Source of the DNA: a virus
Lineage: Duplodnaviria > Heunggongvirae > Uroviricota > Caudoviricetes
Virus record (IMG/VR): IMGVR_UViG_2541047596_000003
Strand: one strand, 5' to 3'
Length of the DNA stretch: 64,000 nucleotides
Numbering within the stretch: position 1 is the first letter of the stretch; each line of letters begins with the position of its first letter. Made by a program: the position numbers and the translations under genes. Below are positions 2,389 through 15,698 of the stretch, piece after piece. A model generated the notes under the pieces. It made no database searches, was not told the origin of the DNA, and was given only the letters and a program-made list of their open reading frames with translations.

Positions 2389-3846
2389 TTAGGAGCGCCA
2401 AAAAAAACCTGAAAACAATATAATAACAGGATAAATTTCAAGGCGACCAAGAATCATAGCTATGCACATTAAACATTTTGCAATGTCATTAAGCACTCCG
2501 AATGACGATGCAGTAGCCCCAAAACCTAATCCCATATTATTAATACATGCAGCCACTGTTGCAAATGATGTAAGAAAATCATATCCCATACCATTTAACA
2601 CCAGTATAAAAAACACCGTGAAGAGAGTATAAAGAAAAAAGAAACTCCATACAGACCTCATTACACGATCTGTAACTATCTTCCCTCCTACATTTACACT
2701 CAACAACGCTCTGGGATGAGAAAGCTGATTTATCTCGTGTTTGCTTTGTTTGAAAAGTATAAGAAATCGAAGTGACTTAATTCCACCACAAGTTGAACCT
2801 ATACATCCCCCAAAGAAACTTGACAACAGCAAAAACACTATCGTGTGCGTGGGCCAACTTGCATAATCCTGCGTAGCTAAACCATTATCAGTGAGCATGG
2901 AGCTGGCAAGAAAAAACGAATGAATAAAACTTCCATGCAAGTCATACATACCTATATGCCAGACCTGGAAAGAGGTAACAATGATCACCCCTAAGGCTAT
3001 TAACAGAAAGAAACGAAGTTCAATATCTCTGATTAAAGGTTTTATCGTTTTCCTGCTAATAACAATATACCAAAGAGTGAAGTTGAAAGCCGATAGCAGG
3101 GAAAAAGAACCAGCCACCAGCTCAACCAAATAGTTATTAAAATATCCGATACTCTCGCTATGAGTTGAGAAACCACCAAGCGAAACTGTGGAAATCCCGT
3201 GACAAATAGCATCAAACAAAGGCATTCCTGCAAGTCTATAACAGACAATACAAGCAATACCTAATAAAGAATAAGTTATCCACAGTGTCCGTGACGTATC
3301 GGCCAGGCGGGGAGTGAGTTTGTCATCCTTAAATGGCCCCGGCATTTCTGACTGATAAAGCTTTGCACCACCAATACCCAATAATGGCAATACTGCAACC
3401 GCCAGAACAATAACTCCTAAACCACCTATAAAATTTAACTGTGACCGATAGTACAAATATGCCCGAGGTAATGAACTAACATCATCAATTACAGTTGCTC
3501 CTGTTGTTGTTATTCCAGAAACCCCTTCAAACAGAGCATCAATGAACGTTAAATTAAGTTCTGAGTCAATCCATAAAGGGAATGCACTAATAACAGAAAA
3601 CAAAATCCAAAACATTACAATTATAATAAACCCATCACGGGTACGTAATTGAATGCCAGATTTCTTAGTTGTATACCACGCTCCGCCACCAATGCAAAAA
3701 AATATAACGAAAGTTATAAAGAAAACGAACAGGATTTTTTCTTTATAAAACAATGCTACAACCATTGGTGGCAACATTGAAAGACTATAGAGCCAAACCA
3801 AGAACCCACACATATGAGTAACAACTCTTACATGAGATGTATTCAT
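2389..3846 (-). CDS. trkG: Trk-system potassium uptake protein TrkG
   Basis: Polytopic membrane protein with TrkH/TrkG-type sequence; ATG at 3846 (MNTSHVRVV) gives 485 aa as in Rac TrkG; ORF track start 3864. Confidence 0.85.
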   Translation of the reverse strand: MNTSHVRVVTHMCGFLVWLYSLSMLPPMVVALFYKEKILFVFFITFVIFFCIGGGAWYTTKKSGIQLRTRDGFIIIVMFWILFSVISAFPLWIDSELNLTFIDALFEGVSGITTTGATVIDDVSSLPRAYLYYRSQLNFIGGLGVIVLAVAVLPLLGIGGAKLYQSEMPGPFKDDKLTPRLADTSRTLWITYSLLGIACIVCYRLAGMPLFDAICHGISTVSLGGFSTHSESIGYFNNYLVELVAGSFSLLSAFNFTLWYIVISRKTIKPLIRDIELRFFLLIALGVIIVTSFQVWHIGMYDLHGSFIHSFFLASSMLTDNGLATQDYASWPTHTIVFLLLSSFFGGCIGSTCGGIKSLRFLILFKQSKHEINQLSHPRALLSVNVGGKIVTDRVMRSVWSFFFLYTLFTVFFILVLNGMGYDFLTSFATVAACINNMGLGFGATASSFGVLNDIAKCLMCIAMILGRLEIYPVIILFSGFFWRS

Positions 3847-3983
3847 ATCTAAATATTCTTTCAATTATAACCACCTTGCTGCAATATTATGATTATACTG
3901 TATAAAATTTAACTCCTCTTAGATCTTACTTCACTGTTCCTTATGAAACAATCATCAAAATGAATCATATTGTAGTTAAGATT

Positions 3984-4460: not shown

Positions 4461-4942
4461 AAACAGATTTCACGCTCAATCTCACGACGAGTCATGAGAC
4501 CTTTCCATTGCTTACCGCCAGCATATGTCCAGCGACGTAGCTGATCACATGCGCCTTTGATATCGCCCTGGTTTATTTTGCGAAGAAGCGTCGATGTTCT
4601 GAAATTGCCAGCACCCACGTTGTAAACGAATGAGTAAAGAGCGCCGCGCGTTGTTTCCGGTATATCGACTTTGATGTACGGGTTAATTTGTCTGGCGACC
4701 GTGGCAAGGTCTTTATTCAAGAGTGTTTTGCATTCTGCTTTGGTATACGTTTTACCGAGCATGATGTCTTTTCCTGTATGCCCGTGACATACAGTCCATA
4801 CACCAACAATATCTTTGTATGGTATGTAGCTGACACCTTCCAGACCATCGTTACCACTTGGGCCAGTGATTAACACTGATGCTATAGCAATTGCTCCGCC
4901 ATCAATAGCAGCAGCAACGACTTTTCGTAATGATGGAGGCAT
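4445..4942 (-). CDS. phage lysozyme / endolysin (GH24-like)
   Basis: 165 aa with the lysozyme R family signature ...[19 protein letters not shown]...; between holin and Rz. Confidence 0.85.
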
Positions 4943-5157
4943 TATTCACCTCTCGCAGCCTTGCGCTTATCTTCTTTAATCTTGAAATAAAGGTTTGTCA
5001 GGTACGTCAGCAGGCCAAATACCAGACTACCCAGCACACCGATTGCAGCCCACTGTGACGGAGTTACTCTATCGAGCAACTGTAAAAACCAGTAGCCAGC
5101 ACTGCCTGCGGAGGTGCCGTAGGCAATGCCTGTTGAAATTTTGTCCATGGATTTCAT
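4942..5157 (-). CDS. holin (EssD-like, class II)
   Basis: [26 protein letters not shown]... with SD GGAGGTGA upstream of the ATG at 5157; ORF track start 5214. Confidence 0.75.
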
Positions 5158-5257
5158 AGCCTCACCTCCGCACGGAACGGATGGCATAGTTATTATGTGT
5201 AGGCTTTCAGACACATCAATCAGAGCCTTAATTGATATATATGCTGGAGACGATGCA

Positions 5258-5283
5258 ATATAAAAAGCTCGCCGTAGCGAGCT
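5258..5283 (-). terminator. rho-independent terminator after the lipoprotein pair
   Basis: Hairpin AGCTCGC-CGTA-GCGAGCT (5266-5283); minus-strand RNA follows it with a U-run (A-run 5262-5266 on +). Confidence 0.5.
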
Positions 5284-5408
5284 AATAAAATGTATTTCTC
5301 TGATATTATGTTTATTTGTATTAGCTCAGACTTGACATCACAGGTTTCGTATATAGAACATCATCAAATCTGTCAGTTTGCTATGAATGAGATATAGTAA
5401 TTGAAGAG

Positions 5409-5804
5409 CTAACCTCGCATGTCAAAGCCAGATTTCTGAAAATCTCTGTAGACTTCCGGATTGTTGAAGGCCGGAAATTTGGCTTTATGAGCTGCGGACT
5501 TTATCGCTTCGCAATAGGCTTTATCACCGTTACTGGTAGATATTTTTAACGCCGTGCCATCCTGAGAGAATTCCATATGCAACCTGCATTTTTTCCCTTT
5601 CCAGTTATGCGGCTCATCAAGTTTGGCATTAATTGCAGCTCTGATTCCCCGCGCTTGCGCCCCCCATTCATCCTGATCATCCCAGCGTCCTGAACTGCAA
5701 CTACCTGTAGCAGTAGTTTTGTGGCAATCTGAAGGGTGTAAAGGTGTGCATCCCGCAACAAAACCGACCCAAAAAGTCAACATAACGATTTTCTTTAATC
5801 CCAC
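5409..5804 (-). CDS. lipoprotein with divergent TolA domain III-like C-terminus
   Basis: Signal peptide with lipobox VAGC; C-terminus ...KGKKCRLHMEFSQDGTALKISTSNGDKAYCEAIKSAAHKAKFPAFNNPEVYRDF resembles TolA-III; start 5804 is GTG with SD GAGGAG. Confidence 0.6.
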   Translation of the reverse strand: MGLKKIVMLTFWVGFVAGCTPLHPSDCHKTTATGSCSSGRWDDQDEWGAQARGIRAAINAKLDEPHNWKGKKCRLHMEFSQDGTALKISTSNGDKAYCEAIKSAAHKAKFPAFNNPEVYRDFQKSGFDMRG

Positions 5805-5954
5805 TTCTTGCTCCTCAATCCATTAAAATCTCAGCAATAGTAGTTGTTACGTCCGCCACTGGCTCAGAGCTGACTATCCGCTAAATTTAGCTCAGTGCCG
5901 TAGCTGTGTCAGAACAAACCTAAGCCGAAACCGTTTATTACAAAACAATAAATA

Positions 5955-6383
5955 TCAGGGTTTAAAATCCAGCACCCCATTTTGAAATACTTTATATACT
6001 TCCGGCGAAGGGGGGGCAGGTATATCAGCATTCTTTATCGCATTCATCGCTTCACGACATAAATCGAGGTCTCCACTTTCTCTTTTAACCTCCAGTAGAA
6101 GGCCATTCGGGGCCATATGCATTCTCAGTGTACACTCTTTTCCTGAATACTTACTCGCATCCCCGAACTGTTTTTCGATGGCGCTCTTGATTTGATGGGC
6201 ATACAGACGGATATCCTCACTAACATCAGAAGTACGTTCAGATGAACTCACATACTGTGTCTCTATTGCTTTATCGGAGTAATATGATGTACGGTCATGA
6301 TAATTTGTCGATACAGCATCAGTGCACCCGATAATAATCCCACTAATAATCAACGTAAGAATTGATGCGCTACGAAAACCCAT
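5955..6383 (-). CDS. lipoprotein with TolA domain III-like C-terminus
   Basis: Signal peptide with lipobox IIGC; C-terminal ~90 aa YAHQIKSAIEKQFGDASKYSGKECTLRMHMAPNGLLLEV...CREAMNAIKNADIPAPPSPEVYKVFQNGVLDFKP closely parallels recalled E. coli TolA C-terminus ending ...VYEVFKNAPLDFKP. Confidence 0.65.
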   Translation of the reverse strand: MGFRSASILTLIISGIIIGCTDAVSTNYHDRTSYYSDKAIETQYVSSSERTSDVSEDIRLYAHQIKSAIEKQFGDASKYSGKECTLRMHMAPNGLLLEVKRESGDLDLCREAMNAIKNADIPAPPSPEVYKVFQNGVLDFKP

Positions 6384-6413
6384 TTTTCCTCACATATGTC
6401 ATATAGTAAAGGA

Positions 6414-6442
6414 TTATATATACCGTTGTTTTGGACGCTCAA
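6414..6442 (-). promoter_or_regulatory. candidate sigma70 promoter of the lipoprotein cassette
   Basis: On the minus strand TTGAGC-17 bp-ATATAA(T), about 30 nt upstream of the lipoprotein ATG at 6383. Confidence 0.35.
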
Positions 6443-7319
6443 ACAGCGAATCAGATCAAATAAAACGCACATTTGTTAACATTTACACAAAGTCTGCGTG
6501 GGATATTCTGAAAGAATATCCATAATGTGGAGAGAATCTATTGAAGTGCATGGTGCCGGGTGCCTCCCGGTGAACAAAATGTTCGTGATACCTGTCGGCG
6601 ACAGAAAAGGTTAATGGTATCACCCCACCGCACAGGGGGATTCACCATGCAGGAGTTTTCTTAGCAAACTCACTGCGCGCCCGGCAACTCCCAACCACAT
6701 AAAATGCGGAGTTTGTGGTATTTATGCATATAACTCGCAGGAATTATCTTAAAAAACTGATGTCGATCCGGATTAAAAAGAAGCAGGTCATCATCAGATG
6801 ACTGGAAAAAAGGAAAACAAAAAATACTCATCATACAGTTTTGATTGCAGGGATGAGCCTGCTATGCACAATATGCAGAATATAAGCAAGATAAAAATAT
6901 GCAGGCATATTATTTCGGATTTTGTTATTAACACAACCTTTTTAATAATCATTTGGCATACAATAAACCAGCCCAAAAAGAACCGCCTAAACAGGCGGTT
7001 GGTCAATACAAAGGATGCTTCGTCTTTATTATAGTAATCTGAGGCGTCGGGTGTCTTGTATCAGACAACATATTGTCCCGCTAAACAGCGAATTACAAAC
7101 CACCCTGCAATGATCTCTCATCTCATTTTATATGAGTTGACGACATCAGGATAACGCATCATCAGCCCCTGCCAAGAAATATCAAAACTCCCGCCAGCAA
7201 TGTGTTATCACAATATTGTAAAAAAAACACAGCACCGAAACTATAACTGGTCTCTGTTATAATTTGGAGCAGAAAGACCAGTTGCCCAACTAGCAGCATT
7301 CTCCCCTGCTTTCCTGACG

Positions 7320-7427: not shown

Positions 7428-7970
7428 TCAAGCCATTTTCTCAGCAAATGATTCACGCATGGGAATATATAGGGCATACTCAGCAACAGCTAACCAATTA
7501 GCAATCCGTTTTTCGCATGTGCTAAAACACCACTCTGGGTGTGCATCATTTAGCAATTCAGCCATTTTGCGCTTAGTCATCCCCCGCCCTTCATAGCGTT
7601 GCCGGAGAATGCAAATCAATCCTGGATGCTCTGCCAGCACCTCACTTATGACTCGATCAATACATAACGCCTCTGCATCAGTACAATGCGCCAGCCAGCT
7701 CTTTTGCTTGCCGTTGATCATCTCTCGCAAAAACGCTTCCAGCTCAGCTTTCTCTATTCCCGCTTTTTTCATTCTGCGCAGGGCTTCATTAATGGCTGTT
7801 TTCGTCAGTTTTTTGGATGCCAACAACTGATTGAACATATTCCCTGACCTGCCACCGCCAATATACGACCAGCGCCCCCACATACGTAGTTTTCCCTGAA
7901 TCCAGACACTTTCCAGCGTGGTGAGGCGAAGGTGTTCTCCGCTTTTTCCTGTATTCGTTGGGTAAATCAT
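7428..7970 (-). CDS. putative late-gene antiterminator (Q-like)
   Basis: 180 aa ORF at the Q position, between ybcO-like and the terminator/lysis region; assignment positional. Confidence 0.45.
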   Translation of the reverse strand: MIYPTNTGKSGEHLRLTTLESVWIQGKLRMWGRWSYIGGGRSGNMFNQLLASKKLTKTAINEALRRMKKAGIEKAELEAFLREMINGKQKSWLAHCTDAEALCIDRVISEVLAEHPGLICILRQRYEGRGMTKRKMAELLNDAHPEWCFSTCEKRIANWLAVAEYALYIPMRESFAEKMA

Positions 7971-9223: not shown

Positions 9224-9627
9224 AGTAGCCACATGATAAGTTGCTGGAATCATATTTCCCACTCAAGTCATTAACATTTGATAAGATATATCTAAAAGGA
9301 CGCCTTTACATTATTTATGTGTATATAATTTATTTATATACACAGTAAAGGTATCCTGGGAAAATATTTATCGTTAAAAAATACATCATAAATAATTAAG
9401 CTGAAATTTCAGAACACAACTAATACACACAATAAGGTTCAGTAACAATAATCTATGTGGACTACATCGAGATTTTTTGATTAAACTTTAATAACTTATT
9501 CCTAACACACAGAATGCATAAACTAAAAGTAAAACAAATAGTTATACGAAAAACAACCATATTTATTATATCTTCTCCTCTAATCAACATATCAATTATG
9601 TGTTTCATAACAGCTTGACATAACCCT

Positions 9628-9658
9628 CAAAAACACGCATTTATAATGCATGTTTTTG
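9628..9658. promoter_or_regulatory. operator-like palindrome over a TATAAT box upstream of the yeaR-like gene
   Basis: CAAAAACACGCAT-TTATAA-TGCATGTTTTTG (13-bp arms, one mismatch); TTGACA at 9615-9620; resembles NsrR-type sites as I recall them. Confidence 0.35.
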
Positions 9659-9669
9659 AGGAGGTGGTT

Positions 9670-10008
9670 ATGACACACAAGAGAATTCCTAAAGATTGGG
9701 TAATCAAACGCTCAACTCCGTTCTTCACAAAAGAGAACGTACCTTCAGCGTTATTAACACATCATAATACAGCAGCAGGTGTTTTTGGGCAGTTGTGCGT
9801 AATGGAAGGCACTGTAACATATTATGGTTTTACTGATGAGAATGCTACTGAACCGGAGATAAAAGTAGTCATTAATGCTGGCGCTTTTGCAACAAGCCCA
9901 CCACAATACTGGCACCGTGTTGAACTAAGCGATGATGCTCAGTTTAATATTAACTTTTGGGTCGCTCCAGACTTCTCGGGCGAAAAAGTCTATAGCACCA
10001 AAAAATAG
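9670..10008 (+). CDS. YeaR-like DUF1971 protein (TehB N-domain-like)
   Basis: 112 aa from ATG 9670 with SD GAGGAGGTGG; motifs STPFF, HHNTAAGV, MEGTVTYYGF, FNINFWVAP resemble chromosomal YeaR; ORF track start 9646. Confidence 0.6.
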   Translation: MTHKRIPKDWVIKRSTPFFTKENVPSALLTHHNTAAGVFGQLCVMEGTVTYYGFTDENATEPEIKVVINAGAFATSPPQYWHRVELSDDAQFNINFWVAPDFSGEKVYSTKK

Positions 10009-10037
10009 ATGATCATATTAAAAATGCTTTAACAGTC

Positions 10038-10075
10038 AGACCCGGCAGGGCTATCCCCGACGGGTCTCATTTTTG
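10038..10075 (+). terminator. rho-independent terminator after the yeaR-like gene
   Basis: Stem AGACCCG / CGGGTCT with a 16-nt loop, then TTTT at 10071-10074. Confidence 0.45.
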
Positions 10076-10459
10076 TAAATATATTGGTTCTACATTGACA
10101 GGAGACTTCAACCATAAGAAGTAATCTGAATACTTGAGCAATAAATTTACTTAAGATTAATGAGCGCACCTTGCCGGACAAAGATAAACCAAGGTAACAC
10201 CTTTTTTCTAGCCAGTATGTAATCAATCAGAAAGCCGCTCCATAAGAACAACAGCAAGACAATAAATTGCCATTACAGCCGCAATAGCCAGCGCACATTT
10301 GAGAACCAGCACGACACCCCCCTGTATTAGACGCACACCAGTCCTGATAAATATAAGGCTGTCTCGTCAGTGATTCAATACAACTATTGGGTATAGTTTC
10401 TGTGATTTTATTCTGTAGAAATGGAACACAACAACCAGTCACCACCAGCACTTCTTTAA

Positions 10460-10471
10460 ATACGCCAAGTC
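10460..10471. repeat. 12-bp direct repeat AATACGCCAAGT, left copy
   Basis: Perfect copy of the 12-mer also at 12239-12250; the two bracket the low-GC HEPN-like gene. Confidence 0.5.
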
Positions 10472-10484
10472 CGACGCAAGCTAA

Positions 10485-10550
10485 CCTTCTAGTCCGCTTT
10501 GAGCGAGAAGCGGAAGTCTCGGTCTTATTATGTTCTGAGACTAGAAGGTA
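10485..10550. repeat. nested inverted-repeat element
   Basis: Outer 11-bp arms ACCTTCTAGTC / GACTAGAAGGT 44 bp apart, enclosing TCCGCTT/AAGCGGA and AGTCTC/GAGACT stems. Confidence 0.4.
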
Positions 10551-10678
10551 TTTCTTAAGGATGATTATTCGTTACGCCTACATATAATAGAAACAGAAAT
10601 TTAAAGTTTAAATCTAGGTATCTGGCTAATGATACCTAGATTGAATTTGAATCATATTTTGTTAGTTAACTTTAACTA

Positions 10679-12046
10679 TTATCTTTCTCCAACATCCTCT
10701 TCTAAAACATGATCTATCTTATCTACAGGAAGATTATCATACTTAGAAAAATCAAAACCATCGGGAAGTTTATTTTTTGCTGCTTTTAATATTCTTATTG
10801 AATCGTTACCGTTTCTAGAGCGATTTCGCCAATAACATTGATTGTTTTTGTTTGCTCCTTCAAGCAGGGTTAACATTTGCTCGCTTGAGTAATTAGCCAA
10901 GTCTTTGTCAATAAATCTATCAAAATATATATCGGCTCGTTCGAAATCAGCACTATTTATAAAACAAGCAATTCCAAAATCGCGATACTCTGATTCCAAA
11001 CCTAATTCGCTGCAAACATTTTTAAAAATTGCCAAATGTTGCTGGTTGAGAAAATTCCCATTATCCCCGTATTTTTTGTAATATTTTTCAGATATTCTTT
11101 TTGTTACGCGATTAATGTGTTCCTCCGGCGATTCAGATATAAAAAAGGCTATTCCAAAATAAGATATGTTATCTTTTATAATAGGCTTTATGAGTTCTTT
11201 TACTGAATCATCCAAGGCGTTATATATTTCTTTCTCCATGGAAATGAACTCAATTAGTGCCTTAATTGCATCATGGTTATTGGAAATATTGGAGTAATAA
11301 GCAGTTTCTGCTTTAACCGAGTCCACCATGGCTTGCCTGTCTTTTTCAAATATCAGTTTCATAGCTCTGATATTTATCTCTCTATTTTCTAATGGCTTAG
11401 CTTCTTCAGATCTAAACGAAAACTTCCACAACCCCTTGAATATCTTAACTAATACTTCCTTGTTTAAAGATTTGAAATATTTAACATCTAAGTATTTTTT
11501 TAGCGCGTTATCGGAAGGGAATAGGTCCTTTACCTTTTCTAGATCTGCAACAAATGTGGAAAGTATTTTTTGAGACATAAATGGCGGCTTGCTTAATATT
11601 ACTTCTATACTATTCCTAATGTCACTTCTAATCATTTCCTGTGTTGGCTCGAATAACGTATCTTCGTCACTTATTACGGGATGGGCAGATAAATGCCTGT
11701 GTTTTTGAATAAGTAAAACTTTATGGTTTGAAGCAGTGTCTAATAATTGAGTTCTTTCAAAAACTCTTTTAATAAGCTCTTTTTCCCATTTAGGAGAGTA
11801 AGGATCATCGTTTTGTAGTGCTTCAATTTCTAATAATATCTTTTCCGCAACAGCATCGTTATGAACATCTCGCAGTTCTTGGAGCTTAAAAATAATATCA
11901 CATACAACTACTGACCATAGCATCACGGTAGCAGAACGGTAACAACCATTAGCATAGCTCTTATAAACCTCTTCAAAATATTTTCTAGTTCTTCTATCAT
12001 AAATTTTACTCTTCTGAGATTCTAATGAGAATATTCTAACGTCCAT
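10679..12046 (-). CDS. HEPN-like protein, candidate abortive-infection/defence effector (function unproven)
   Basis: 455 aa from ATG 12046 with SD GGAGA; markedly AT-rich versus neighbours; KHRHLSAHP contains an R-x4-H motif after a predicted helical N-terminal region; ORF track start 12094. Confidence 0.6.
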
Positions 12047-12238
12047 AATTTCTCCATGAAAAATATTTAACTCAAATAATTGAATATGAATCATGTAGTC
12101 ATAAATACTTCAAAATTATATTTTTAGCCCACTTAATTCATACAAAACTTCTTTAATAAACTGATTCAGGCCTCATGCATTATGCTTTTAACAAACTATC
12201 CTAACCTTCATAGTGTAAATCTTGATGTTCAATTTTAC

Positions 12239-12250
12239 AATACGCCAAGT
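12239..12250. repeat. 12-bp direct repeat AATACGCCAAGT, right copy
   Basis: Second perfect copy, 1779 bp from the first. Confidence 0.5.
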
Positions 12251-12434
12251 TTCCGTAAATCAATGAATGCGTCGGATTTTACAATAATTTAAAAGAGATG
12301 TTGAATAGTATCCATGAAGTGTAAGGTTAATATACCCAAAACGTCCGCCTCTGGCACAAAGCGGACAACCACGCTAGCTCTACCCTGTGCCACAAAATGT
12401 CAATTTGCATCTGAACTAATGCACTTTAATCTCG

Positions 12435-12857
12435 TCACTTCAATAAATACCGAACATCACCCTGATAAAACGACAATATGCGCTGCATAACTTCACTCTT
12501 CCGGCACTCGCGACAGATTATGTTCTGACGCCTGTCGTAGCGACGTATTTCTCCGTCAGGTAATGACCAGATAAGGTCCGGATCAACCGCAGATGGTTTC
12601 TTCAGCTTTGCCCTTGAGAGCTTTTTACGGGCATTTTGCCAGTCCTTACGCGCCTGTTCAGACGGGAATAACCCGTAACCAGAGTTGTATACATCGCCGC
12701 TGGCAACCAGCTCTCTTGCGAGAACGCTCATCAGATATCTTGTCGCATCTGTCTTGACTTCCAGTTGCCGTAACGTCTCGCGTCCACTCCGGCGTACTAG
12801 CTCAACAACCTGCCCTTTAATTTTTTCCCGCTCTTCCTGTGTAAAAACTTTTGCCAT
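12435..12857 (-). CDS. hypothetical phage protein
   Basis: 140 aa from ATG 12857 (MAKVFTQEER) with SD GGAGG; contains a CRECRK motif; ORF track start 12872 is TTG. Confidence 0.45.
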   Translation of the reverse strand: MAKVFTQEEREKIKGQVVELVRRSGRETLRQLEVKTDATRYLMSVLARELVASGDVYNSGYGLFPSEQARKDWQNARKKLSRAKLKKPSAVDPDLIWSLPDGEIRRYDRRQNIICRECRKSEVMQRILSFYQGDVRYLLK

Positions 12858-12872
12858 AAGCGCCTCCGGCAA

Positions 12873-13634
12873 TCACTTTTCCGACACAATACGACTGGAG
12901 GAATCGACAATCTGTCGGACAATATCCCGGTGCTTGTTCAGCTCCCGCAGCGCGGCGCAGACTCGCTCCCACTTCTGGACATGATTTTTCGCCCGACGCA
13001 GTTCGCGGTTTGCCATATGCAGCGATGGTAAAACCAGGTCATCCGCTTGCGTTTCAGTAAACGATGGCAGCGACTGCACAATGTCCGCCACAGTTTCTGT
13101 TTTAATATCTTCCTGTGTTGCCGCTTCCTGTACTGGTAACGCAACACCGGCTGGCTGAGGAAAGGCTTTACCATCAGTTTCCGCTACCGATGCAGCTTTC
13201 GGCTCTGCTGGTAAATTATCGCCCGGCATGCAGTAACGAAATTTACCGTTCTGATTAACGCGAATCAGACGACCTTTATTGATTGCCATTGCCAGCGTTG
13301 AAGCCACTTTGCGTGATGTGATGCCGAAAAACGTAGCCAGTTCATCCGCCGTTTGTGGGCCACGTTGTTCAATCGTCGCAGTTAAATCGCACTCCGAAAT
13401 TTTTGCGACTGTTGCCGTGGTGGTTTCTTCCGGCAGTTCTGCCTGCTCTGGCTGTTCCTGCTGAACGTTGTTATCAGCCACGCGCCAGGTGTATACGCTT
13501 TTATCAACGAAGCCAGCCTTTTTCAGTTCCCACAGCTCGTTCAGCACTTCTTCACGACTGATATCAAGTCGCGCAGCCAGTTCTACCGACGTAGCTTTCC
13601 CCATTGCTTTCAGTGCGTCAAAAACAGTCTCCAT
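12873..13634 (-). CDS. winged-helix DNA-binding phage protein
   Basis: ATG 13634 ([43 protein letters not shown]) with SD GGGAGAA; ORF track start 13685. Confidence 0.5.
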
Positions 13635-13656
13635 TAAATTTTTCTCCCGGTAAAAA

Positions 13657-14403
13657 TTACTTCGCAATTCCTGGCTGGACGACATTCGGACGCCAGCTCT
13701 CCCAGTTAAAATTCACCCATCGCCCGCCGTTCATGGTCATGCGATCCATAATCCGCTCGCCGAGCAATGTTTTCATGGCCTCATAGTTCAGGTTTGTCAG
13801 CATTCCCACGCTACGCATCGACGCTGTCCGTCGATCAATAATCTGGTGCAGTACCACCTGCTCGTTTTTCGTCTCGCGCTGAATGCCAATTTCATCAAGA
13901 ACCAGCAGATCCACTTCGCACAGTTCCCGCAAAAATTTTTCGCCTGACTGCCCGTCGTCATAGCTGGCGTGGAGGGCACTCATAACATCAGCCACGGTAA
14001 CCACAATCACTGTCTGACCGTCTTTCAGCAGGCGATTCCCGATAGCTGCCGCTAAGTGATTCTTCCCGGTACCAGGTTTTCCGCTGAACGCAAAATTTGT
14101 ACACCCGGTCATCAGTTCATCAGCGATGGATTTCGCCTGACTCAACGCGTATCGCTGCCCTTCGTTCTGCACCTGGTAATTCGAAAACGAGCATTTGCGG
14201 TGCAATGGCTGGATGCCAGAGCGATTCAGAATTTTTTCCACCCGCAACTGACGATTCTGACGGTTGATCTCCTCACAACGTTTCTGGCCTTCGGAAAGTT
14301 GCCACTCGCGCCACTCCGCTACCGTCTTGAATGGCGCGGTTACATGTGACGGGGCCAGTCTGCGGATACGTTCAAGAACGTCGCCTGTCGCAATATTTTT
14401 CAT
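13657..14403 (-). CDS. ydaV: DnaC-like replication protein (helicase loader)
   Basis: 248 aa with Walker [16 protein letters not shown] and Walker [10 protein letters not shown]; same length as Rac YdaV. Confidence 0.85.
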
Positions 14404-14511
14404 GGTCAGTTACCCCCTGAAGCCTGGCGGGATCGCACTATCCGGTAACGAGACGGTGTTAACCTGTCGGAGTAACGTCTCAGGTCGAACACCTTTCGGC
14501 GCGAACAAGCC

Positions 14512-15198
14512 CTAGTATTCGTTGGCGATGCTGTGTCGAATCACCTGCTCAGGTGAAAAACCCTGCTGGCGGAATTTTTCCAGCTCCCGTATCGCCCCGT
14601 TAGCGCCCTGCTCCGTTCGAATCGGTTTTCGCAATGCCTGCCTGAACTGAACCCACTCATGCCAGAGTGTTTCCGGCAACCAGTCAGGCAGCTCGATAGC
14701 CTCCGGTTCGAATTTTTTAGACGCTCGTTTTTGGCGAGGGGGATTTAGGGGGAGATAAGTATTTATATCTTCCTCTTTCTCTTCCTCTGGTAACGCTTTT
14801 TGATCCGTTTTTGTAACGCTGGCAGCGTTACCTTTTCGTTTCAGTTCTCGTATTTTTGTTACTCTCTCGTTTGTAACCGCCCGTTTTTTAGAGCTTTTCC
14901 CGTTATGGCGCTCAAAGTTAGGAAGCGACAACACACCATTAGTTTCGACCAGCCATCCAACCTGAATTAACGCATCAGCAAAACCAGCCATAAAAGTGAT
15001 GCGATCTATTGCACTTTTTGTAACGCCGCGAGCGTTACACTCTGCGTTACCGTCTATCATTTGTTGATCCGCCCATGCCCAGAAGCGAATGACTTTCCCT
15101 AATGCGGCATCTGGATCAATATTCAGAATCTCAGCAAGCCTGAATATTTCCGGCTTATCCGGCGTAATAACTTCGAGCTTTATCCAGTTTGAAGCCAT
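14512..15198 (-). CDS. replication initiation/organiser protein (YdaU-like)
   Basis: 228 aa upstream of the DnaC-like gene, basic C-terminal half; positional call. Confidence 0.55.
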   Translation of the reverse strand: MASNWIKLEVITPDKPEIFRLAEILNIDPDAALGKVIRFWAWADQQMIDGNAECNARGVTKSAIDRITFMAGFADALIQVGWLVETNGVLSLPNFERHNGKSSKKRAVTNERVTKIRELKRKGNAASVTKTDQKALPEEEKEEDINTYLPLNPPRQKRASKKFEPEAIELPDWLPETLWHEWVQFRQALRKPIRTEQGANGAIRELEKFRQQGFSPEQVIRHSIANEY

Positions 15199-15275
15199 TT
15201 GTTTTCACCTTGTAACGCTCGCAGCGTTACATTTAACTGATACCGAACAAAACAGTTCGGTACGATTAATTTCAA

Positions 15276-15698
15276 TCAATGCACTACGACAGAATCGCTA
15301 GGAGAACCGCCGCCGCTGAAATGTGCTTTACGGTAAACGGCCTGGACTGCATCATCATGCGCATCAATTGCCGTACTCAGTGCATCCTGTGCCGCCAGTA
15401 ATGCACGGCGTTCCAGGGTATCGAAGATGCAGAGTCGGTGACGCAGCTCGCGAGGAAGAATTGCCAGAACCGCAGGGATCAGTTTCTGAATTTTTTCCCT
15501 TTGCGCATTCGTTTCACCTTTCAACCAACGATGATAGATATTCTGCTGATTGTTCCAGTCCTTGCCTGGTACCAGGGGCAATTCGCCGCCCCCCTGGCGC
15601 AGATATTCTTCAGTAATTGCGTTAGCGACCCACGCCTGCCCTTTTTCGGCTGCCAGGGCTAACAACACTGATTCGATGTGCTCATGCTTGATTTTCAT
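15276..15698 (-). CDS. ydaT: YdaT-like prophage protein
   Basis: 140 aa (MKIKHEHIESVLLALAAEKGQ...), same length and position as Rac YdaT, co-oriented with the Cro-like gene. Confidence 0.65.
   Translation of the reverse strand: MKIKHEHIESVLLALAAEKGQAWVANAITEEYLRQGGGELPLVPGKDWNNQQNIYHRWLKGETNAQREKIQKLIPAVLAILPRELRHRLCIFDTLERRALLAAQDALSTAIDAHDDAVQAVYRKAHFSGGGSPSDSVVVH

Follow-up and report, generated by a model that had tools for sequence, protein, structure and literature searches.

Two adjacent prophage lipoproteins carrying a stand-alone TolA domain III: candidate outer-membrane-tethered decoys

The window analysed here, a whole stretch of 64,000 nt of viral DNA (IMG/VR record IMGVR_UViG_2541047596_000003), carries two adjacent minus-strand genes, open reading frames (ORFs) A and B, which encode short lipoproteins ending in domain III of TolA (TolAIII). 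They lie in a lambdoid prophage, between a Q-like gene and the holin. The TolAIII fold is confirmed as genuine in both products, neither of which is TolA itself. With regard to function, the sequence data suggest that both proteins act as outer-membrane-tethered TolAIII decoys or competitors, aimed at colicins and at the N1 domain of phage protein g3p and uncoupled from TolQR, a reading to which we give roughly even odds (probability of about 0.5). Plain coordinates refer to the window throughout, unless a locus label (L...) is given. The two genes and their parts are the following.

5955..6383, minus strand: ORF A, lipoprotein of 142 amino acids (aa) with a C-terminal TolA domain III (ORF list, Pfam, PDB match, AlphaFold2 and Foldseek)
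6324..6383, minus strand: ORF A signal peptide and lipobox, residues 1-20, IIGC (sequence; lipobox kept in homologues)
5958..6221, minus strand: ORF A TolAIII domain, residues 55-142 (ungapped alignment to TolA 334-421; predicted local distance difference test, pLDDT, about 90)
5409..5804, minus strand: ORF B, 131-aa lipoprotein with a diverged TolA domain III and a GTG start (ORF list, Pfam, PDB match, AlphaFold2 and Foldseek)
5748..5804, minus strand: ORF B signal peptide and lipobox, residues 1-19, VAGC (sequence; lipobox kept in homologues)
5661..5747, minus strand: ORF B "linker", residues 20-48, TPLHPSDCHKTTATGSCSSGRWDDQDEWG (column entropy, nonsynonymous versus synonymous divergence, pLDDT below 50)
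5412..5660, minus strand: ORF B TolAIII domain, residues 49-131 (PDB alignment, AlphaFold2, Foldseek)

An earlier reading of this DNA from its letters alone (hereafter, the sequence-only reading) had located two ORFs at these positions, which the ORF list confirms and places on the minus strand, and had likened their C-termini to TolA domain III. Profile searches bear out this resemblance. Pfam family PF06519 (gathering score 25) matched ORF A with 82.6 bits (E-value 2.4e-23) and ORF B with 54.6 bits (E-value 1.3e-14), and the Pfam matches of the two proteins were limited to TolA and TonB_2. Among the sequences of solved structures, residues 334-421 of Escherichia coli TolA aligned without gaps to residues 55-142 of ORF A (E-value 5e-28), and residues 51-129 of ORF B aligned to TolA 341-419 (E-value 5e-9). 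The sequence-only reading had named alignment and structure prediction against TolA as a check on its proposal; the alignments are significant and the models return the same fold. AlphaFold2 predicted the domain with a pLDDT of about 90 in ORF A and above 90 in ORF B, leaving the first 42-50 residues disordered in both models. The top PDB match in Foldseek was a TolAIII structure in each case, 2x9a_B for ORF A (template modelling score, TM, 0.95; root-mean-square deviation 0.7 Å) and 3qdp for ORF B (TM 0.92; 1.1 Å), and TonB C-terminal domains were only distant fold matches for both models. Identity to TolAIII over the Foldseek alignments was 31-32% for ORF B and 57-60% for ORF A, so that the description of the latter as following TolA almost residue for residue overstates the identity.

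Both proteins lack domain I, the transmembrane anchor that couples TolA to TolQ-TolR, in whose place they carry signal peptides of 19-20 residues, and both lack the long helical domain II that spans the periplasm. Consistent with this, only positions 293-386 of 387 were covered in the full-length NCBIfam TolA models. ORF A (107.8 bits) and ORF B (53.7 bits) remained below the NF007065 cutoff of 213, and ORF A exceeded the TIGR02794 cutoff of 59.45 with a score of 75.6 obtained through domain III alone. This last result is probably the reason why RefSeq/PGAP labels ORF A as a pseudogene, "tolA, incomplete, missing N-terminus" (NZ_CP033250.1). Moreover, the two genes are not part of the ybgC-tolQRA-tolB-pal-cpoB cluster; their site next to the holin, with the Q-like gene (DUF1133, 7970..7428) on the other side, is the one given in the sequence-only reading, and the lambdoid prophage is of the Rac type.

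The N-terminus of ORF A, which has an ATG start, reads MGFRSASILTLIISGIIIGC followed by T, and that of ORF B, starting from GTG, reads MGLKKIVMLTFWVGFVAGC followed by T. Each comprises a positively charged n-region, a hydrophobic core and a lipobox with Thr at position +2, matching the lipoprotein signal peptides, with lipoboxes IIGC and VAGC, that had been recognized from the letters. Signal peptides were judged by inspection and by match to the pattern [LVI][ASTVI][GAS]C only, which identified a lipobox in 151 of 166 close homologues; the 15 homologues without a match are truncated, mis-started or outside the pattern (P0026, TNGC). Cys20 is the predicted lipidated residue of ORF A. As a rule, lipoproteins without Asp at +2 are sorted by the Lol system to the inner leaflet of the outer membrane. 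The +2 residue is nearly always Ala, Thr or Ser, and never Asp, in the 166 close homologues, and since it is not Asp in ORF A or ORF B either, outer-membrane sorting is predicted for both proteins.

Shine-Dalgarno sequences precede both starts, GAGG in ORF A and GAGGAG (5815..5810, with a spacing of 6 nt) in ORF B. RefSeq places the start of ORF B at Met8 (NZ_CP033250.1, locus L004), thereby removing the charged n-region; the GTG start is preferred here because of its Shine-Dalgarno sequence, the fit of the resulting signal peptide and the match to the N-termini of the homologues. Both RefSeq annotations (ORF A as a tolA pseudogene, ORF B with a start at Met8) look wrong. The GC content of the genes (about 42% in ORF A and about 47% in ORF B, with neighbouring genes at 45-53%) is not decisive as a mark of foreign origin.

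The ratio of nonsynonymous to synonymous divergence (dN/dS) was 0.04-0.20 between ORF B and 27 loci from plasmids and other genera. For ORF A, comparison with two variants yielded ratios of 0.09 and 0.24 over the domain and of about 0.5 over the linker, as a tether would give. These values point to purifying selection on both genes. The interpretation of ORF A as a tolA pseudogene was rejected on the basis of its conserved lipobox, low dN/dS and presence as an identical sequence on at least 1000 contigs.

To compare binding surfaces, published TolA interface residues (PMC4339652, PMC3365938) were mapped onto the ungapped alignments. In TolA, g3p N1, colicin N and the N-terminus of TolB all bind by beta-augmentation at strand beta3 (L417-P421), and substitutions D418P or K420P abolish binding of g3p, colicin N and TolB alike (PMC4339652). 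The beta3 strand of ORF A is LDFKP, the same as in TolA, and 11 positions of helix 1 (TolA 336-349) are also unchanged. The colicin A site of TolA encompasses L375-P380 plus K368, K379 and K396, the three lysines that establish cation-pi contacts with colicin A (PMC3365938). ORF A keeps K379 and K396, and presents His in place of K368. Equivalents of TolA C363 and C388 are kept in both proteins (Cys84/Cys109 in ORF A and Cys73/Cys98 in ORF B). In TolAIII these two cysteines are joined by a disulfide, and the conserved pair fits a periplasmic location of both products.

The segment of ORF B that connects the lipobox with the domain presents features of its own. It reads C-TPLHPSxCHKTTATGSCSSGRWDDQDEWG, with two extra invariant Cys and two invariant Trp residues, and AlphaFold2 leaves it unfolded (pLDDT below 50). 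Mean column entropy is 0.18 bits in the linker and 0.36 bits in the TolAIII domain; the median dN is 0.06 in the linker (residues 19-48) and 0.07 in the domain, with dS values of about 1.7 (saturated) and 0.69, respectively. The saturation of synonymous sites in the linker led to the rejection of a nucleotide-level constraint behind this conservation and shows that the constraint acts on the protein sequence. That the linker is both conserved and constrained marks it as a functional peptide element and suggests a role for ORF B beyond the display of a domain. Mimicry of a colicin TolB box by the linker (SSGRWDDQDEWG) was also considered. Colicin TolB boxes contain a core DG(S/T)GWSSE followed by an anchoring Trp, as in the boxes of ColE9 (GASDGSGWSSENNPW) and ColA (KGDGTGWSSERG) (PMC2821528). 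This core is absent from ORF B, and the likeness of its linker to the ColE9 and ColA boxes is limited to Trp residues and acidic character; the candidate was rejected on this account and is retained solely as weak speculation.

In the proposed mechanism, the products of ORF A and ORF B would be exported, lipidated at the lipobox Cys and delivered to the outer membrane, on whose inner leaflet each would expose a free TolA domain III, held by a flexible tether of 30-35 residues. Because domains I and II are missing, the displayed domain would be uncoupled from the TolQR proton-motive motor. It would stand just under the outer membrane, at the site where colicin translocation (T) domains and g3p N1 emerge, and could capture these ligands, and in part the TolB N-terminus, by TolA-like beta-strand augmentation. 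Captured ligands would be diverted from productive, energised TolA and their import would not be powered, resulting in tolerance to Tol-dependent (group A) bacteriocins, in exclusion of filamentous phages, or in both, with a weakened Tol-Pal function as a possible side effect or cost. TolAIII binds colicin N with a dissociation constant of 1 uM, g3p N1 with one of about 12 uM and TolB with one of 40 uM (PMC4339652). Given these affinities, a moderately abundant decoy could trap invaders and mostly spare TolB, which would keep its cost low. The outer-membrane location, the ligand binding, the protection and the expression from a repressed prophage are what we infer in this scheme.

Decoy activity, or interference with Tol-Pal, is plausible by analogy, and experiments with free TolAIII in the periplasm offer a precedent. 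Levengood-Freyermuth, Click and Webster reportedly found in 1993 that free TolAIII in the periplasm of wild-type E. coli confers tolerance to colicins E1, E2, E3 and A. TonB-dependent colicin D was reportedly unaffected, and the cells are said to have been leaky. In addition, periplasmic g3p N1 titrating TolA has been shown to reduce phage uptake by 4 logs and to confer tolerance to colicin A (PMC10424213).

Of 5426 complete E. coli genomes, 774 (about 14%) contain the 1.3-kb segment with ORF A and ORF B at an identity of at least 99%. DNA and protein searches of phage isolate databases returned a single record, mEp460_ev081. In a scan of IMG/VR, which was informative on mosaic boundaries and not on distant relatives, all of the best 80 matches were E. 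coli prophages with an identical copy. About 38 of these 80 loci, like mEp460, share with the window only 4941/4955..6574, at 99% identity, and differ in their Q and endolysin modules. This block consists of the holin, the terminator, ORF B, ORF A and the promoter region, and its flanks vary between prophages.

The sequence-only reading had taken ORF B for a more diverged copy of ORF A, a view that the comparative data contradict. The two proteins are 29% identical, ORF A is nearer to TolA than to ORF B, and ORF B is a member of another family, one with a wide distribution. Two relatives of ORF A, P0007 (91% identical) and P0028 (66% identical), occupy the Q-to-holin slot of other lambdoid prophages on their own. 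In these loci, homology to the window ends exactly at the ORF A stop codon, which identifies ORF B as a separate insertion. Tandem duplication was rejected as the origin of the pair on the grounds of the low identity, the closeness of ORF A to TolA and the occurrence of each gene alone elsewhere, and low identity and separate occurrence also led to the rejection of an obligate two-gene system. ORF A and ORF B are two stacked, independently acquired cargo genes in the Q-to-holin slot. The same interval of the ORF A-variant loci also holds AraC-type, PmrD-like and esterase genes. At L145 5001-7732, the 66%-identical variant adjoins a DUF1737/SASA (nanS-p-like) esterase; a nanS-p-like esterase is the gene that flanks stx in Stx phages, which by analogy places this variant in the stx slot of a Stx-phage-like prophage.

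Relatives of ORF B were identified in about 35 species of Enterobacterales, with protein identities of 65-89%, in genera that include Citrobacter, Enterobacter, Klebsiella, Leclercia, Lelliottia, Serratia and Pantoea, among others. Nearly all are single genes, with synteny within genera and none between them, and 2 copies of the family are pseudogenised. On the chromosome of Serratia marcescens (L009 8957-10736), the ORF B homologue adjoins GmrSD-like (PF03235) and HEPN genes and lies in this way within a small defence-gene cluster next to nrdDG. About 600 plasmids carry an ORF B-like gene with 87-88% nucleotide identity. In conjugative IncI1/B/O and IncK2/Z plasmids this gene is located 67 bp downstream of the nikB relaxase gene, as at L003 5004-5435 and L139 7004-7435, on the same strand, and may for this reason be co-transcribed with the oriT/nikAB operon. 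In pO157-type IncFIA/FIB plasmids, it lies between insertion sequence elements and the hok-psiAB leading region. The filamentous phage If1 attaches to IncI pili, made by IncI plasmids. TolAIII acts as its coreceptor (PDB 2x9a), and the IncI plasmid copy of the ORF B-like gene, set beside this biology, provides a suggestive hint of a decoy role.

Two further lineages were detected. The third is a 144-aa lipoprotein with lipobox LITAC and a C-terminal ...KNAALDFRL, present on about 310 IncF/IncR plasmids of Klebsiella and Enterobacter. It carries the TolA-like motif VDDLLGNL (L141 5217-6246, L142 5217-6246), and its gene is preceded by a thioredoxin-fold gene in both inspected loci. The fourth, P0193, maps between a Phage_antitermQ gene and holin/lysozyme genes on an unrelated lambdoid metagenomic contig (L130 7001-7393; JGI metagenome 3300003973) and constitutes its own cluster representative at 50% identity, apart from ORF A and ORF B. 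An exhaustive profile search returned 585 cluster representatives with an E-value of 1e-3 or lower. The best 150 included 148 newly retrieved sequences, of which 78 were short (100-175 aa), 58 of these 78 with a lipobox, and most preserve the TolA-like C-terminal strand (F/L)KNxxLDF(K/R). Stand-alone TolAIII lipoproteins are a sizeable class, nameless in the sources queried, and they recur on prophages and plasmids in the way that conflict genes typically do.

The Rac-family prophage of the window is integrated at ttcA, with its integrase end at about 24.2 kb; relatives of recET, kilR and sieB lie to the right, and trkG is located at 2389-3864. The elements that surround ORF A and ORF B are listed below.

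7428..7970, minus strand: Q-like late regulator, DUF1133 family, upstream neighbour (ORF list; RefSeq annotation of the syntenic locus)
7057..7028, minus strand: late-promoter-like site, AAGACA-18-TATAAT (consensus scan)
7000..6981, minus strand: terminator-like GC-rich hairpin and T-run, within about 30 nt of the late-promoter-like site (scan)
6494..6680, minus strand: match to the Rfam small RNA (sRNA) STnc100 (86.6 bits versus a gathering score of 47)
6413..6442, minus strand: sigma-70 promoter-like site upstream of ORF A, TTGAGC-18-TATAAT, 10/12 (consensus scan)
5258..5283, minus strand: intrinsic-terminator-like hairpin (5283..5266) and T-run between ORF B and the holin (7-bp stem, 5 GC pairs, tail TTTTATATTG)
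4942..5157, minus strand: holin essD, downstream neighbour (ORF list; RefSeq)

On the minus strand the order is the Q-like gene, the late-promoter-like and terminator-like pair, STnc100, the promoter-like site, ORF A, ORF B, the terminator-like site, the holin gene essD, the lysozyme gene rrrD and Rz/Rz1. Judged by lambdoid architecture, the segment 7057..6981, which follows the Q-like gene, looks like a late control region of the pR'/tR' type whose leader transcript would be very short. Since ORF A and ORF B lie downstream of this pR'/tR'-like pair, they are predicted to be transcribed late, with or without a promoter of their own, and by analogy their transcription after induction would reach a high level. 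The STnc100 match adjoins the promoter-like site of ORF A on the upstream side and the mosaic breakpoint met most often, 6574, falls within it. The match may represent a prophage sRNA or a piece of the leader of the late transcript. Structured RNAs other than STnc100 were not found with Rfam, and no tRNAs were detected in the whole window, where they were sought by analogy with the Q-to-holin interval of Stx phages.

The sequence-only reading had described the two genes as a self-contained unit with its own promoter and terminator. Both sites are recovered by the scan, which found 11 promoter-like sites versus 6.9 expected and 4 terminator-like sites versus 2.1 expected. The notion of a self-contained unit draws on consensus matches only and is not supported, and the moving block 4941/4955..6574 includes the holin as well. 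The 91%-identical variant locus has the same -35 hexamer, with TGTAAT as its -10 hexamer; the comparison of this promoter across variants is uninformative. In other lambdoid phages the same Q-to-holin slot is occupied by stx or nmpC. We take the Rac prophage of E. coli K-12, going by its gene order, to be devoid of this whole region, a loss that may explain why ORF A and ORF B have gone unstudied. Elsewhere in the window, positions 9239-15675 are nearly unmatched in reference strain ECCHD184, with just about 500 bp (12342-12867) aligning at 92%, and the corresponding part of the ECCHD184 prophage contains BCCT-transporter, LysR and MFS cargo genes. The Rac-type prophage is mosaic at 9239-15675.

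Several observations weigh against the interpretation of ORF A and ORF B as tethered decoys. The linker of ORF B is more conserved than its domain, a feature not expected from a simple tethered-decoy model. The same protein has lost all three of the colicin A-contacting lysines, and its beta3 strand, FDMRG, preserves the hydrophobic/acidic/hydrophobic/basic pattern of TolA in a changed sequence. Constitutive expression of such proteins should be costly, because free TolAIII is known to make cells leaky, and the candidate promoter and terminator of the two genes are consensus matches only. Most relatives of ORF B, as well as most of the more distant short TolAIII lipoproteins, are chromosomal singletons in ordinary neighbourhoods, which also fits a housekeeping role in the envelope. 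PADLOC models did not match ORF A or ORF B, which led to the rejection of known defence families for them, and PHROGs assigned them to PHROG 5772, of "unknown function". Finally, a full-text literature search, with subscription journals partly covered, returned no studies of these proteins.

The distribution of the chromosomal copies has also to be weighed for the possibility that outer-membrane TolAIII lipoproteins are normal, endogenous envelope modulators in the Enterobacterales and that the mobile copies represent lysogenic conversion, not defence. Such proteins might offer outer-membrane docking to TolB or another TolA ligand, tuning Pal mobilisation, vesicles or stress resistance. This scenario is in line with the 78 short proteins among the 148 retrieved sequences, 58 of them with a lipobox and most with the TolA-like C-terminal strand, with the many singletons that sit among housekeeping genes and are syntenic inside a genus, and with the strong purifying selection, and the extreme conservation of the ORF B linker suggests a specific cellular partner. 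We nevertheless judge it unlikely, given that neighbourhoods differ between genera, that 2 copies have become pseudogenes, that the genes occur repeatedly on plasmids and prophages and that E. coli K-12 presumably does without ORF A and ORF B, which would hence be dispensable; the overall pattern points to accessory or conflict genes and away from the core machinery of the envelope. At the other extreme, the RefSeq label of ORF A, "tolA, incomplete, missing N-terminus", would suit captured fragments of the tolA 3' end without any role. Such relics are very improbable and are effectively refuted by the selection and conservation data: both frames are intact and preceded by Shine-Dalgarno sequences, in place of TolA domains I and II there is a complete lipoprotein signal, conserved in homologues, dN/dS lies clearly below 1 and the sequence recurs unchanged on those 1000 or more contigs.

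The arrangement of the locus lends itself to another explanation, in which the proteins sabotage Tol-Pal late in the lytic cycle. Antitermination by Q would produce much free TolAIII before lysis, titrating the TolB N-terminus, and the ensuing tol phenotype, with outer-membrane destabilisation and vesiculation, would aid spanin-mediated lysis or the release of progeny, protection of the lysogen being secondary. The genes do lie downstream of the pR'/tR'-like pair and directly upstream of the holin, endolysin and Rz/Rz1 genes, the commonest mosaic block ties them to the holin, and the ORF A variants and the P0193 lineage are always found in the Q-to-holin slot. The TolB-binding beta3 strand is identical in ORF A, and the leakiness reportedly caused by free periplasmic TolAIII (Levengood-Freyermuth, 1993) is also in keeping with late sabotage. 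The ORF B family, however, is mostly non-phage, consisting of chromosomal singletons and plasmid-backbone genes in settings where there is no lysis, and the Q-to-holin interval serves as a slot for cargo in general, with AraC-type, PmrD-like and esterase genes in the ORF A-variant loci and stx and nmpC in other phages. The prophage already has a complete spanin pair, and the flanking promoter-like and terminator-like sites are as expected for expression in a lysogen. On balance, late sabotage appears improbable as the main function.

With E. coli TolAIII (PDB 1TOL, 1S62, 3QDP/3QDR, 2X9A) both proteins share the fold, the Pfam family and the Cys pair, and ORF A also shares LDFKP. They differ from TolA in that a lipoprotein signal and a short linker replace domains I and II and in their location in a prophage, not in the tol-pal operon, and ORF B has diverged from TolAIII at the colicin A site and at beta3. 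The engineered periplasmic TolAIII reported in 1993 likewise is said to have placed an uncoupled TolAIII in cells that keep TolA. That construct was reportedly soluble, overexpressed and artificial, whereas the products of ORF A and ORF B occur naturally, have a predicted lipid anchor in the outer membrane and are under selection on mobile elements.

Small lipoproteins of phages and plasmids, such as Cor (phi80/N15/mEp167), Llp (T5) and TraT (F), guard their carriers against phages, colicins or conjugation. ORF A and ORF B resemble them as small lipoproteins of mobile elements, with a protective role that is proposed only, and no sequence relation to Cor, Llp or TraT was detected with Pfam, PHROGs or PADLOC. 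Furthermore, Cor and Llp inactivate the outer-membrane receptor FhuA, whereas ORF A and ORF B would mimic a periplasmic coreceptor domain. In function, the closest analogues are these three lipoproteins and the g3p-mediated sequestration of TolA. The two genes share with the lambdoid Q-to-holin morons stx and nmpC (concept reviewed in PMC3594210) the slot and the presence/absence pattern between related phages, with candidate promoter-like and terminator-like sites on either side of them inside the late operon, and differ from them in the cargo. Sequestration of TolA by g3p (pIII) relies on the same g3p N1-TolAIII pair to block entry, and is obtained with periplasmic N1 or with full-length pIII (PMC10424213). 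In that case the ligand of the invader saturates the host coreceptor, whereas here, conversely, a copy of the coreceptor would saturate the ligand of the invader.

The domain family itself is already known and named by automatic annotation. In the literature and databases searched, no description came up of the class as such, lipid-anchored, stand-alone TolAIII proteins on prophages and plasmids, and no function assigned to it. The RefSeq tolA-pseudogene label and the Met8 start hide ORF A and ORF B from surveys of defence genes. Going beyond the two proteins, we tentatively envisage the class as a widespread, undescribed decoy defence against Tol-dependent bacteriocins and the Ff/If1 phages, to which the ORF B linker would add a second activity; this broader view is possible, though we would not call it probable. 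The observed carriers of the class are lambdoid prophages, IncI-complex plasmids, pO157-type IncF plasmids and the IncF/IncR plasmids of Klebsiella. Pilus-specific phages (Ff, If1), which attack cells that those same plasmids make vulnerable, would be among the targets of such a defence. The disulfide-loop and Trp-rich linker of ORF B, again as a tentative suggestion, might capture TolB or another periplasmic partner.

If the decoy interpretation is correct, the Tol-Pal system, besides being parasitized by colicins and filamentous phages, is mimicked by prophages and plasmids for the protection of their host, and receptor-domain decoys join receptor masking, receptor modification and lipoproteins of the Cor/Llp/TraT type. 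The presence of the pair in 774 of 5426 genomes could then be one reason why natural tolerance to colicins is widespread among E. coli isolates, and conjugative plasmids of the IncI and IncF groups could offset the phage liability of their own pili.

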